Below are positions 21,256 through 32,409 of a DNA stretch of 64,000 nt, one piece after another. Location of the stretch: positions 32,001 through 96,000 of the forward strand of contig CAVQMO010000012.1 of assembly GCA_963713605.1 (NCBI GenBank). The letters run 5' to 3'. The notes below the pieces were generated by a model. That model had not been told where the DNA came from. It searched no databases and saw only the letters and a program-made list of their open reading frames with translations. The position numbers and the translations under genes are program-made. Origin of the DNA: an uncultured Nitrososphaerales archaeon (lineage in GTDB: Archaea > Thermoproteota > Nitrososphaeria > Nitrososphaerales > Nitrososphaeraceae). Each line of letters starts with the position of its first letter. Positions within the stretch are counted from its first letter, which is position 1.

Positions 21256-23003
21256 CTAAGTATGTAAATTAACTAATTGCTCTCTGGTTAATATGACTGG
21301 CAATACTGTCCCAGGTCGTGCCTTATATCCAGGAACTCCTACTCCCACGGCGATCATCGGTCCTCTTATTAGCCGCATGTGGAGCAAAGAATTCGGTCGT
21401 CGCATCATCGAAGAATGTTGTTCCAGATGCCCCTATAGAGTGTGCATAGCTTGACAAGTATATTTTACCTGTAATGATCCCTGCTTCAAGCTGAGCAACC
21501 CGATATCCTCTGTTACCAAGTTCATCGAGCACCTTATGAAGATCCGCCATCAAGAATATCACTGCACTTGCATCACTAAAAAGAGACTGGCCTAGACAAA
21601 GATAACCGGAGATCTGCCTTGATGCATTTCTTTTTAACAAATCGAACGCTTTGAGTTTGCGATTAAAGAAATATGCCCCAGGTTCTAGACCAACCACACT
21701 ATTAGAGATAAGATAAGCGTCGATTACCGATGACATAGCTTGTTCATTTGCGAAGACATCCATTGGCACTCCCCGTGTGGAGCTGTCAAGTATAGAGAAA
21801 AGTGTGGAAATTGAAATAGACGAACGCTTATCAAACCTTCGAGTTGATCCTCGTCTCAATATTACTTCGCCGATAGTCATCCTTGTAGGTGTACCTGTGA
21901 CATCTGACATCTCTTTTCGGTCCAAAATGGGTTCAGTGTTGTTTTCCAATTCAATGTTTTGATGTCGTTGTTCTAAATGTTGCTTGGAAATTGAGCTCGT
22001 ATTGTGATTAGTTTGGATTTGCTGGCCAGATAGAGGTATTATTTGTTTGAATGTCGATCCAAGATTCGACATCTCCTCTATCTAAAAGTTTTGAATTTTG
22101 GTGCACTTTCCAAATATCAGGATAATCTATCTCTTCTCCTTGTGACACCGATACAATCTTTGGAATGGGTAGATCACCAATTTCTTTTTGGATATTGCTA
22201 TCTGTCTTGGAGTCAGATTTTGGGCAATAGCCTATCCCAATCGACGCAATTACTATCGAAGCTTCTTTTAGAGCCTCCAAGCGCAATAGTCTATCAACTA
22301 TATCGTCGACATACCCCATAATCAATTTGGTAGGAAGCTTCATCGATGCAGTAGTTGCCAAGAGATTAGCAACAATCACACCACAGTCCCAGAACCAATG
22401 ACGATAAGATCTTGCCTGATATTTCCATGAATTTCTCCATGCCAAAGAAGAAAATATTATGGAAAGAGGCGACGTAAAGATTGTGTCATATTCTCTTTTT
22501 GCTAACGCGGTGGAAGCCAATGCATGTCTGTAATCTCCGCTTCTTAGCTGAGTTAAGCTGAAATCGGCTGGACCAAAATGATACACTCCAGCAGTTAGAT
22601 CTGGAGTTATGTCACCACAAACGACGTATAATTCTATAGGATAGAGGGCCCCTGTAGCAGAGGCAGCACGCATGAAATAGGTGCCGTAACTATATCTCAT
22701 CACCCTTGTTATGCCAGCAGCAAAAAATAGGATCTCAGATATATCCGTGGCAGAAACAGATTCCTTGGCTTTTATTGTATTATAATCTGCAGGTTGCTTG
22801 ACATCTGAGATTGAAGTGATCGAATCTAAATTTGGGATAGGGAAATTATTCGTAAGAGGGTAACGTGGTTGTTCAAGATATGTTTTAAAAGGCATCGGAC
22901 GGTTATCGTAGTCTAAATAATGTCTAGAGGTCATTATGCTGACTTCTGAATGTTTAGTTGCTTCATGATAATCTAACGCGTGTTGAATCTCCTTATTGTT
23001 CAT
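21256..23003 (-). CDS. SagB/ThcOx-family FMN-dependent dehydrogenase (tandem nitroreductase domains; two frameshifts)
   Basis: 'YHEATKH', 'RAASATGALYPIELY', 'WKYQARSYRH', second domain 'RRGSTRRF...RGYRVAQLEAG'; C-terminus PMIAVGVGVPGY...HT* ends at 21256. Confidence 0.88.
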
Positions 23004-23386
23004 TGATTTGTAATGATTGAAGACTGATATAATTTTTACAAATGGATAGGACTCGAATAGTGGATACATATGATGATGGTCTTGAAAATTGCGTCATAGC
23101 TAGCTATAATATCTAATTCTATTCAAGAAATCAGCTACACCTTGATAGACGCTTTTCAAAACAGACAGAATCTACCTAGGTTCTACGGACTAGCAAAGTG
23201 AACTTGTGCAGGATTTTGGATTAGACTGTTCTACACAATTCGCATGAATTTTGCCAAAAACATGGAAAGTCTTAAAATGATATGCATTTACGAAAAAAGC
23301 TATTGTCCCCTTATCAACTTCGATAAAAATATCTTTATACTCCTCAGGAATATTGTATTATTGAATGTCAAACCCAAACGACAAGT

Positions 23387-27679: not shown

Positions 27680-28354
27680 CTAGCTATTTACCATCTTCTC
27701 GAATTTTGCATCTTTAGCTGTAACAAGTCCTCTATCCACTAATGGTTTTTCTCCTAACGCCTTCTCTATAGCTCGATCGCTTAATTGGACGGCTTGAGCA
27801 ATGGTTATATCTTCGGTATATTCTTTCTGAATTATGTCGATAGCTGTGTCCGAATACTGTCCTATTGCGAAACCAGATCCACTGAAGTATGTACCGCTAG
27901 GATCAACTTGATACAATTGAACCCCTGTCGGATCAAGTCCAGCAATAATTATCGATGCTGCCTGAGGTCTTACTGCATAAATTGTAAAGTCGTGCAAGTA
28001 GGAGCTGAGCTGTCTTGCGAGCGACTTTATATCTATGGGACTATCATAAGTGAATCTGTATTTCTGTGCTGCAATTCTCATCTCATCAATTAGCTGAAGT
28101 ATGTCTCCTATGTATCCAGAACCAGTAGCACCCACATGTCCATCTATTGCAAATATCTTCTCTGATGGTTCTACCAAAGGCTTTGTAGGCTTAATGTGAC
28201 TAGAGATCAGGGCAAAAGTTGACGTTTTGATTCCTATTGTGGTTGAACCCCTACCAACTGCCTCAAGAGCACTATCTACTAATAACAGTCTTCCTTCAGG
28301 TCCATAGTAGTAAGGATATCTCGTGTTAATTCCTGAGCTACCTAAATCGGCCAT
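27680..28354 (-). CDS. psmA: proteasome alpha-type subunit, divergent paralogue
   Basis: 'GPEGRL..V..A.EAVGRGSTTIGIK', 'EKIFAIDGH', 'VRP..ASIIIAG', 'LYQVDPSG', 'AIG'. Confidence 0.9.
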   Translation of the reverse strand: MADLGSSGINTRYPYYYGPEGRLLLVDSALEAVGRGSTTIGIKTSTFALISSHIKPTKPLVEPSEKIFAIDGHVGATGSGYIGDILQLIDEMRIAAQKYRFTYDSPIDIKSLARQLSSYLHDFTIYAVRPQAASIIIAGLDPTGVQLYQVDPSGTYFSGSGFAIGQYSDTAIDIIQKEYTEDITIAQAVQLSDRAIEKALGEKPLVDRGLVTAKDAKFEKMVNS

Positions 28355-28359
28355 TTCTA

Positions 28360-28946
28360 TTATCTCTCCCTCTCCTTCACTACTAAGGAAAGGTTTGGGA
28401 TCGTCAATACATCTATACCGTTTCCAGAACCAGGATCTCTTTCCATTGCTGCAGCTACGGCTTTAGTAGCTATCTCCTTTGCTTGTTCATTGGTCAAGTC
28501 TTTGTGAAATATGCTTTCAAGGACTCCATATGCAATGGGAGAGCCCGAACCAGAGGAAGCAAATTCCTCACCGGTAATGGCTCCACTCATATCTGCAACA
28601 AATATGTGTCCACCTTCTTGATCTACTCCACCTACCAGTAATTCCACGAAGTATGGTTGATAGTTCTTGAGCCCGGTGTATGCCTGATTAGCGATTAGCC
28701 TCGCTGATTCTTTTACCGTGACTGGAAATCCTCTTCGTAACTCGATTAGATTTCTTTCAGCCTTTACAAGCTTAACCATGTAATCTGCATCGGATAGCTC
28801 GCCCAGCAATTGCTACTGCTAAGGTTTCATCTATTTTTGTTATCTTTTGCGTAATCTTAGAACCTATAAAGAATCCCTTACTGGCTCTTCTGTCAGAGCC
28901 CAGTACCGACTCCTTCTTTTGTTCTTATACCAACTATTGTGGTCAT
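28360..28946 (-). CDS. psmB: proteasome beta-type subunit without propeptide (two +1 G frameshifts near 28907 and 28803)
   Basis: reconstructed MTTIVGIRTKEGVVLGSDRRASKGFFIGSKITQKITKIDETLAVAIAGELSDAD... joins ORF 28360..28809 ('SGSGSPIAYGVLE', 'ERDPGSG'); SD-like GGTGAAAGGAG upstream. Confidence 0.92.
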
Positions 28947-29112
28947 TTTCTTTCTCCTTTCACCAGATATATCTACGCAAGAGAAGTATTAATTGACCAG
29001 CATCTATGGAAATGAGTCACAGTCATTGTACCAGATCATATAAGAGTGAAAGCAACTAAGTTACCCTTGGTGCATCTTTAATACTTGGAAATCCATATCA
29101 TGGCGATCCGAA

Positions 29113-29580
29113 ATGCAAATGAAATTTGATAAGATCATGGTAGCAATCGATGGTTCAAAGGAATCAATGCATGCTGCGAATTGTGCCATAGGAATTGCAA
29201 AGAAGTATGATGCAACGTTGGTTGTCCTCACTGTATTACCACAGGAATTAAGATATGAGTATGAAATTGATCAAGTAGATCCGGAAATTCCTATGGCCCC
29301 TGTGAAGGGTGTGGTTGAATTATCTCGCATGGAGATTGAAAATAAGTGGTTTACAGACATCAGAGAAAATGCTTTGGCTAGTAATGTCAGGATCGAGACT
29401 GAAATCGCAATGGAAGGGAAATCTGTTGTATCAGATATTATAGAGTATTCTGAAAAGCAGGGTATTGATTTGATAGTAATCGGTACAAAAGGAAAAACGG
29501 GATTAAGAAGGTTATTACTCGGTAGTGTAGGTCAAGGAGTATTGGCTTATGCTCACTGCCCTGTACTACTTGTAAGATAG
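29113..29580 (+). CDS. universal stress protein (UspA family)
   Basis: 'IMVAIDGSKES', 'DLIVIGTKG.TG....LLGSV', 'AHCPVLLVR'. Confidence 0.95.
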   Translation: MQMKFDKIMVAIDGSKESMHAANCAIGIAKKYDATLVVLTVLPQELRYEYEIDQVDPEIPMAPVKGVVELSRMEIENKWFTDIRENALASNVRIETEIAMEGKSVVSDIIEYSEKQGIDLIVIGTKGKTGLRRLLLGSVGQGVLAYAHCPVLLVR

Positions 29581-31884: not shown

Positions 31885-32409
31885 ATGAAAATAATAGGTA
31901 CGCAAAAATTCTCTAGTCATATGTACATAGCCTACCTTACAATTACATCGATAGCTTTTGGCTCACTGTTTGCAACACCACAATTATTGTTCGCGCAAGG
32001 CGAAGCGAATGAGACATTTTTCGAGACCGCGGTAAGAGAAGCTGGTCAGACAGAGGCAGCAAAACCAGACAGCGAGCAGCAGCACCTCCTAGCTCAACGG
32101 AGGCAGCAAAACCAGACGGGCAGCAGGCAGCACCTCCTAGCTCAACGGAGCAGCCAAAACCAGACGGAGCAGCAGCACCTCCTGAGCTCAACGGAGCAGC
32201 AAAACCAGACGGCAGCAGCAGCACCTCCTAGCTCAACGGAGCAGCAAAACCAGACGGCAGCAGGCAGCACCTCCTAGCTCAACAGAGCAGCAAAACCAGA
32301 CGGCAGACGAGCACCTCCTAGCTCAACGGAGCAGCAAAACCAGACCCAATCACAAAATCCATTCGAGCAATTAGGTCAAGCGATATCAAAGCTCTTTGGT
32401 GGAAATTAA
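31885..32409 (+). CDS. secreted low-complexity repeat glycoprotein (frameshifts within the repeat)
   Basis: signal peptide ending 'LFAQ', repeats of AAAAPPSSTEQQNQT, C-terminal 'NPFEQLGQAISKLFGGN*'. Confidence 0.75.
32051..32346 (+). repeat. ~45-bp tandem repeat, about 6.5 copies
   Basis: unit GCAGCAGCAGCACCTCCTAGCTCAACGGAGCAGCAAAACCAGACG; 'AAAACCAGAC' occurs 7 times at ~45-nt spacing. Confidence 0.95.

Follow-up and report, generated by a model that had tools for sequence, protein, structure and literature searches.

A conserved paralogous proteasome beta–alpha operon with a rebuilt gate in Nitrososphaeraceae and related archaea

Can an archaeon that possesses the ordinary proteasome genes also code for a second, separately regulated core particle? 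The question is raised by two adjacent minus-strand genes in a 64,000-nucleotide stretch of DNA (the window) from an uncultured Nitrososphaerales archaeon, an ammonia oxidiser of soil (GenBank assembly GCA_963713605.1, contig CAVQMO010000012.1, positions 32,001 to 96,000). The upstream gene, at 28360..28946 (ATG at 28946, stop codon at 28362–28360), codes for a beta-type proteasome subunit, recognized by three-frame translation and by matches of its pieces to PF00227 and TIGR03634. The downstream gene, at 27680..28354, codes for an alpha-type subunit of 224 amino acids, which likewise matches PF00227. The gap between them measures 5 nt, confirming the tandem beta-then-alpha arrangement described in an earlier note on this DNA. 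Our analysis of the sequence suggests that the operon is a real, conserved and undescribed variant of the proteasome with a rebuilt gate; its mechanism, which goes beyond the sequence, we infer. We put at roughly 60% the probability that it encodes a separate, separately regulated second 20S-type core particle.

As assembled, the beta gene is split across three frames by two single-base G insertions, near 28906 and at 28798–28800 on the minus strand, which are most likely assembly errors (see below). The intact 194-amino-acid beta of a same-genus genome (G046), 96.6% identical to the window beta across the C-terminal 147 amino acids, was used as its stand-in.

A paralogous pair beside the housekeeping subunits

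A profile search of the genome recovered five proteins matching PF00227, namely the operon pair (137 bits for the alpha and 166 for the intact stand-in beta), a canonical psmA and two psmB genes. The pair is an additional set beside the ordinary psmA, psmB1 and psmB2, as the earlier note had supposed in calling it paralogous. The same 3 + 2 pattern of PF00227 genes was observed in all five complete genomes checked, and ten genomes from other families of the phylum showed only two or three such matches. The canonical psmA (C1:1,031,281) has the YDR motif at its start and passes the equivalog cut-offs of TIGR03633 (296 against 287) and NF003075 (325 against 219), whereas the operon alpha stays below both (158 and 169) and lacks the N-terminal PF10584 signature present in the housekeeping alpha. 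The intact beta, too, falls below the TIGR03634 cut-off (204 against 224), with the genome's psmB1 scoring 223. Identity to the genome's own housekeeping subunits is just 36% for the alpha (against psmA) and 39% for the stand-in beta (against psmB1). Tested against other families, the beta scored 78 bits with the actinobacterial-type model 20S_bact_beta (TIGR03690, cut-off 192), the alpha had no match to TIGR03691, and the HslV models gave 19–20 bits against cut-offs of 137–158, with the partner gene coding for an alpha subunit. By sequence, the pair belongs to the proteasome family and lies outside the housekeeping PsmA/PsmB, PrcBA and HslV groups. Two additional weak PF00227 matches in genome G001 (L234 and L235, at C1:300,175 and C1:278,209) are perhaps remote proteasome-like homologues.

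Phyletically, an alpha orthologue (E < 1e-60) was found in 111 of the 200 genomes of the family, with frequencies by genus of 35/37 (g14), 24/34 (g2), 8/13 (g1), 8/38 (g5) and 0/25 (g12). Elsewhere in the class it occurs in 43 of 250 genomes (f1 19/30, f2 22/145, f5 2/3), the other 72 class genomes giving no match to the alpha query; within f2, 20 of the 21 genomes of g32 and none of the 57 of g20 carry it. A beta profile run across 400 genomes of the phylum further added f21 (25/32) and f23 (12/17), two families that do not belong to the class. Carrier contigs with names come from Nitrososphaera, Nitrosopolaris, other Nitrososphaeraceae and Nitrosopumilaceae. The earlier suggestion that the system may be undescribed in Nitrososphaeraceae stands insofar as we found no description of the operon in the literature, but the pair is not confined to that family, being present in other families of the class and, outside it, in f21 and f23. 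A thaumarchaeal alpha–beta operon goes unnamed in the available portions of PMC8665760 and its text supplement, and the operon is unmentioned in those of PMC3082918, PMC7980362, PMC5777263 and bioRxiv 10.1101/2025.02.13.638070; supplements of genome and proteome papers may list the genes. Our distribution and co-occurrence counts include unpublished genomes (G035, G077, G099, G160, G168, G330 and G409), and no claim depends on these alone; G035, G330 and G409 are also among the relatives' loci compared for synteny, residues and frame. In a search of 50%-representative sequences, few clusters belong to the paralogous family. One candidate beta–alpha fusion (P0123) was rejected, being a doubled eukaryotic-type alpha.

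The arrangement of the two genes is strongly conserved: beta adjoins alpha, on its upstream side, in all 57 relatives' loci. Of these, 52 are intact, three run off a contig end, and of the remaining two one is partial and the other frameshifted. Wherever it was computed, the gap in relatives ranges from -1 to 5 nt, bar two loci in which the alpha start is duplicated; these, from genus g13 (L026 and L027), have a short duplicate of the alpha N-terminus between beta and the full alpha. Two bins contain two paralogous alphas each (G008, on C262 and C110; G147, on C20 and C22), by duplication or mixing of bins. Among the 23 f21 and f23 loci examined, the beta is 60–69% identical and is followed by alpha in 22, the remaining locus being ended by a contig end; the regulator discussed below precedes beta in all 23.

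Phylogenetic trees united the 23 paralogous alphas in one clade (support 98/99, careful search) and the 23 paralogous betas in another (Shimodaira–Hasegawa-like approximate likelihood ratio test, SH-aLRT, 99; quick search only). Both trees recovered the same order, f21,(f23,Nitrososphaerales), with both clades apart from the housekeeping genes, the haloarchaeal plasmid copies, Nonomuraea PrcA/PrcB and Escherichia coli HslV; the expectation of the earlier note that the pair would not branch with the housekeeping orthologues is borne out. The trees are midpoint-rooted only, have single long-branch rows as outgroups (one actinobacterial each) and contain no Anbu or BPH sequences; left out of them were two partial rows (the L205 alpha and L003), the divergent L268 and the broken beta of the window. 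The pairwise ratio of nonsynonymous to synonymous substitution rates (dN/dS) within genus is 0.04–0.11 for alpha and 0.03–0.08 for beta, and the pair is under strong purifying selection. By sequence comparison, it is an old duplication, vertically kept, with many losses. The earlier placing of the operon in an accessory region holds only in part: the flanking genes do differ from genus to genus, but the operon itself has long been passed on by descent, with a GC content (0.41 and 0.43) close to the contigs' 0.36–0.40.

Active site and gate

The pair has its fold and best sequence matches in common with canonical archaeal 20S PsmA/PsmB (solved examples being 1PMA from Thermoplasma acidophilum, 1J2Q from Archaeoglobus fulgidus, 3H4P from Methanocaldococcus jannaschii and 6Z46 from Sulfolobus acidocaldarius). 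The closest solved structure to the beta is 1j2q_H (38% identity, template modelling score 0.77), and the best Foldseek matches of its model, with a predicted local distance difference test score (pLDDT) of 82, are archaeal 20S beta subunits. The common Thr1/Asp17/Lys33/Gly47/Ser129/Asp166 site is also kept: T1, D17, K33, G47, S132, D169 and S172 are invariant in all 23 beta rows of the tree, where we take S132, D169 and S172 to be the equivalents of Ser129, Asp166 and Ser169. Thr1, Asp17, Lys33 and Gly47 are also invariant in the wider set of 30 aligned betas. For the catalytic triad we followed the definition in PMC8665760, as given in its available portion. Around the S1 region, most Nitrososphaerales betas have Leu49, Ser50 and an acidic residue at 53, as against Val49, Ala50 and Gln53 in the housekeeping beta, hinting at a different cleavage preference.

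Unlike the canonical type, in which a propeptide ends in Gly before Thr1, the beta lacks a propeptide. In relatives, the intact protein of about 194 amino acids starts with Met directly before Thr1 (Met-Thr-Thr-Ile-Val-Gly in the window), and all 99 upstream regions put the start codon immediately ahead of Thr1, just one of them offering another in-frame start within the predicted leader. In 41 of 96 regions the ATG lies 28–31 nt past the palindrome described below, where transcription is expected to start given the TATA distance, so that no propeptide could be encoded in those 41. The window's genus has a short leader before beta, and many relatives are apparently leaderless. A propeptide is present in 15 of 17 housekeeping active betas, and the other two, from family f24 (L247 and L262), also begin Met-Thr1. 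The propeptide-less beta is not unique, and is less exotic than first implied. [quoted passage not shown]

The alpha departs further from the canonical form, and the earlier statement that both proteins are atypical at their N-termini proved correct. Its N-terminus has R-Y-P-Y-Y-Y-G-P-E-G-R where canonical alphas have Y-D-R-A-I-T-V-F-S-P-D-G-R, and Tyr26 is replaced by Ser. We compared 23 paralogues and 19 canonical alphas column by column: the 15 paralogues from Nitrososphaerales have lost Tyr8, Asp9, Ile12–Thr13 (the IT switch), Phe15–Ser16, Gln23 and Tyr26, with Arg10 kept. YDR and Tyr26 are present in 19/19 canonical alphas and 0/15 Nitrososphaerales paralogues, and none of 120 alpha homologues has YDR within its first 30 residues. 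The back-loop before Lys66 is two residues shorter in all 23 paralogues; the 19 alphas of f23 and Nitrososphaerales also have a pore loop shorter by one residue, with RPQ for RPF (127–131), and the C-terminal H5 helix is absent from the paralogous alphas. The pocket for the HbYX motif (a hydrophobic residue, a tyrosine and then any amino acid) is retained, with Gly19 and Lys66 in 23/23 and Pro17 in 22/23. Tyr81, which partly opens the Thermoplasma gate, occurs alike in the paralogous alpha and in this lineage's housekeeping alpha and does not distinguish them. The f21 alphas are intermediate, with Tyr26 in 4/4 and YDR in one; as these residues are kept in some f21 members and lost stepwise in f23 and Nitrososphaerales, f21 would represent intermediate stages of the gate.

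What such changes might do can be gauged from Thermoplasma, for which the available portion of PMC10349882 reports that YDR stabilizes gate states, that I12/T13 substitutions raise basal activity 2–6-fold and mostly block activation by PAN and PA26, and that a one-residue deletion in the back-loop slightly raises activity and abolishes activation by both. Since the YDR, Tyr26 and IT switch are lost and the back-loop is shorter, this analogy makes a leaky, activator-independent alpha gate about an even bet, given a separate particle.

Promoter element, regulator and neighbourhood

The operon has its own promoter element, another departure from the canonical archaeal 20S genes. At 28987..29020 on the minus strand, a GTGAC-N18-GTCA palindrome with a TATA-like TTAAT immediately behind it forms a conserved element upstream of the pair, the candidate operator of a winged-helix regulator: of 100 distinct upstream regions, 96 have GTGAC-N18-GTC with TTAAT, three have a spacer one base off and one is masked. 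The same element precedes the pair in families f21 and f23. In the genome at hand, the window's copy is the only site above 14 bits, loose palindrome patterns show no enrichment (7 at N16 versus 0–6 at other spacings), no element stands before any cdc48 gene, and none of seven looser matches lies ahead of a cdc48 or dnaK gene. Closer to the beta, a Shine–Dalgarno-like GGTGAAAGGAG region was read from the sequence at 28954..28963 (minus strand). The earlier note had assigned an AAGGAG to each gene; the one for beta is well placed, 7 nt upstream of its ATG, while the alpha copy lies 17 nt upstream, within the 3' end of the beta coding sequence. Contigs from RNA libraries span 28044–28328 of alpha (X15) and 28608–28950 of beta (X16) at a depth of 3–4, which does not demonstrate transcription.

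A winged-helix protein, which has weak matches to MarR/ArsR-type helix-turn-helix domains and falls in uncharacterised archaeal clusters, is encoded no more than 6.5 kb from the pair in 16 of the 21 long loci. Outside g12, 103 genomes have both the regulator and the operon, 8 the operon only, 10 the regulator only and 54 neither, counts in which related genomes are not independent; in g5 (8/0/0/30) and g2 (24/0/0/10), in the order both, operon only, regulator only and neither, the regulator tracks the operon perfectly. In g12 the regulator is present in 24 of 25 genomes, all without the operon.

The element also occurs before other genes in relatives. It precedes a gene for a cytoplasmic HtrA (trypsin and PDZ domains) in 26 of the 31 HtrA-bearing loci among the 100, a set that is mostly from Nitrososphaera and partly overlapping; three of the other five lack room for an element and two are without it. 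It is also found before FMN (flavin mononucleotide) reductase in 3 of 12. In g12, which kept the regulator and HtrA and not the operon, HtrA adjoins the regulator in 6 of 7 loci, and the element lies downstream in 5 of 7, in 4 of 7 before thioredoxin; as genome-wide pattern scans of g12 gave counts like those of a reversed control, its sites are recognized by position alone. Together, these patterns tie regulator and element to each other and point to a protein-damage or redox regulon, and the link of the element to protein-quality genes in relatives suggests a fit with a stress role.

Several g12 loci have further arrangements of these parts. Four (L291, L293, L294 and L302) show the order HtrA, winged-helix regulator, palindromic element, thioredoxin; in some, a further, gene-less element directly follows the regulator, as though the operon had been excised; and L308 (G014:C1:2,579,153–2,582,184) has a second regulator copy in a unit of element, regulator, element and HtrA.

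In the window, the operon is flanked by a divergent universal stress protein gene (29113..29580, plus strand; PF00582) and an ABC exporter cluster. The stress protein gene adjoins the operon also in same-genus L090 and is not among the families present in at least 3 of the 21 loci, making it a neighbour in the window's genus only. Neither an ATPase gene nor pup, pafA or mpa is among these common families. No exosome, ribosomal-protein or PAN gene lies in the flanks, as the earlier note had stated, though two premises that it built on this carry no weight here: the genome's psmA is itself outside the exosome superoperon, being located, to judge from translations, between purine-synthesis genes and the rpl3–rpl4 cluster, and PAN was not detected above cut-off anywhere in this 87%-complete genome. 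A plus-strand open reading frame at 31885–32277 of the window has QQNQT-type repeat units.

A separate particle and its alternatives

These observations suggest a particle for damaged proteins that is separately switched on. In the mechanism we propose, the winged-helix regulator would bind the TGAC-N18-GTC palindrome beside the TATA box and, under protein-damaging stress, switch on the operon together with a cytoplasmic HtrA, thioredoxin or FMN reductase. The beta would be made with no propeptide, methionine aminopeptidase baring Thr1, and coupled translation of beta and alpha would provide equal amounts for an alpha7–beta7–beta7–alpha7 particle that needs no autocatalytic maturation. Its gate would not be the canonical latch opened by an activator, but most likely a leaky one that responds poorly to HbYX-type ATPases, and the particle would clear unfolded or oxidised proteins without ATP. 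A structure prediction for two betas and two alphas lends weak support to co-assembly, with a score of 0.58 (best control 0.00) that may reflect likeness to solved proteasomes; 116 of 157 solved complexes and 2 of 215 mismatches attained the mark for such scores, but only 18 of the 157, along with both mismatches, did so at 0.60 or under. Agreement in contacts between the prediction runs is at least 90%, with partner pLDDT of at least 81. A more far-reaching version, an ancient protein-damage regulon with an inducible open-gate 20S that needs neither maturation nor ATPase and of which the f21 members are rebuilding intermediates, is a tentative proposal that we consider possible rather than probable.

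Several observations weigh against this picture. Whole genera (g12 and g20) do without the operon, which is therefore dispensable. In this genome the regulator gene is unlinked (C10:321.4–322.1 kb), in place of the adjacent position that it has in most relatives, and no copy of the element was found ahead of the HtrA orthologue or the FMN reductases, so that the wider regulon has perhaps shrunk in this strain. Binding of the regulator to DNA is a prediction, and it may act by activation or by repression. At the gate, conservation of the new N-terminal motif is strong (of 120 homologues, 90 have RYPYYY, 15 RFPSYY and 8 RFPYYY), and the aromatic motif may constitute an alternative closed latch rather than an open pore; with Lys66, Gly19 and Pro17 kept, HbYX docking may also persist. 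The alpha model, with a mean pLDDT of 59 and residues 1–35 below 50, is uninformative on the gate. Finally, archaea that possess extra subunits often build mixed particles, and those in which alpha or beta is encoded by two or three genes make alternate particles with mixed rings as conditions change (PMC13022661 and PMC2910475, in their available portions).

This last point leads to the alternative that the two proteins enter mixed particles with the housekeeping rings under stress, in the manner of Haloferax alpha1/alpha2. The haloarchaeal alternative subunits, such as the Haloferax volcanii alpha2/PsmC, are likewise extra to a housekeeping set and used depending on conditions (PMC2910475, available portion), and the housekeeping set is kept in all carriers checked. 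Nevertheless, we regard mixing as unlikely, for identity to the housekeeping subunits is low, the ring-contact loops differ (a one-residue deletion and RPF to RPQ at 127–131), and alpha and beta are inherited and lost jointly, a few bases apart, which suits a self-sufficient pair. Haloarchaeal megaplasmids also carry adjacent psmA/psmB pairs, one beside an ArsR-type regulator gene; unlike the pair studied here, the three plasmid alphas keep YDR, their two active-type betas keep propeptides, and they branch elsewhere. Two such unrelated pairs are on megaplasmids of Natrinema thermotolerans and Halomontanus rarus (L266 and L267), one of them flanked by genes for aminopeptidase P and an ArsR-family regulator.

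We similarly give only a minor chance to a separate particle whose rebuilt aromatic gate would stay tightly closed until a specific Cdc48 paralogue or another partner opens it. Such a gate would account for the invariance of R12, P14, Y17 and P19 and for the retained Lys66/Gly19 pocket, and the genome has at least six Cdc48/VCP-type ATPases (C1:66–68k, C1:1,100k, C2:59k, C4:23k, C10:235k, 292k and 344k), two of which end in H-Y-R and H-F-R. On the other hand, the conserved neighbours include no ATPase, the cdc48 genes here lack the element, and the shorter back-loop predicts a poor HbYX response.

An architecture other than the four-ring 20S, for instance beta alone as a double ring like that of HslV or BPH, appears improbable. 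The propeptide-less start is indeed shared with BPH (PMC5777263, available portion) and E. coli HslV, and the C-termini of both subunits are short; yet the nearest structure by both sequence and fold is an archaeal 20S beta, the HslV scores lie far below the cut-offs, and an alpha always accompanies the beta. A propeptide-less N-terminal nucleophile is likewise a feature of BPH and of the 22 proteasome-like families that Fuchs, Alva and Lupas described in 2021, and ATP-independent roles have been proposed for such remote families (PMC8665760). [quoted passage not shown]

It is more doubtful still that the operon is decaying in this strain, with both beta insertions genuine. The assembled sequence does contain two frameshifts, the comparison rests on contigs from other runs, and an alpha match is absent from 5 of 13 other same-genus genomes (three of those less than 81% complete). 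Both insertions, however, are a single extra G adjoining a G, and both are absent from all five aligned same-genus loci and from contigs of the public DNA runs X1 and X4, among them one of 349 nt that differs at one other place and another with six further differences over about 600 nt; the X16 RNA-library contig lacks the extra G near 28906, the one place that it covers. The assembly is rich in indels, with 5 of 13 compared genes frame-broken; the alpha of this genome has dN/dS of 0.04–0.11 and the promoter element is intact. As independent contigs and intact relatives lack the extra bases, the insertions are almost surely assembly errors, and we reject both programmed frameshifting and a true pseudogene. 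Elsewhere in the window, two overlapping minus-strand reading frames at 21323–23069, apparently one split nitroreductase-like gene by translation, are consistent with an indel-rich assembly.

Finally, horizontal acquisition of an actinobacterial prcBA, to which the earlier note had likened the layout, is barely credible: the beta-then-alpha order does match the Nonomuraea locus, but identity to Nonomuraea PrcA/PrcB is 23%/28% as against 36%/39% to the archaeal subunits, the beta scores 78 bits with the bacterial model versus 204 with the archaeal one, both trees put the pair among archaeal subunits, actinobacterial PrcB has a long propeptide, and the neighbours include neither a Pup ligase nor Mpa. 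Identities, family scores and trees lead us to reject an actinobacterial or HslV origin.

The effect of alternative archaeal core particles on proteolysis, and their benefit, are mostly unknown according to the available portion of a 2026 review (PMC13022661). The pair offers a homomeric two-gene system that is easily expressed and in which gate residues thought universal have been replaced naturally. It would directly test the roles of the YDR, the IT switch and the back-loop, as well as the existence of a dedicated ATP-independent proteasome. Many ammonia oxidisers of soil and freshwater carry it, and, for a group in which few regulons are known, the promoter element defines a testable stress regulon that would comprise a second proteasome, HtrA and thioredoxin.

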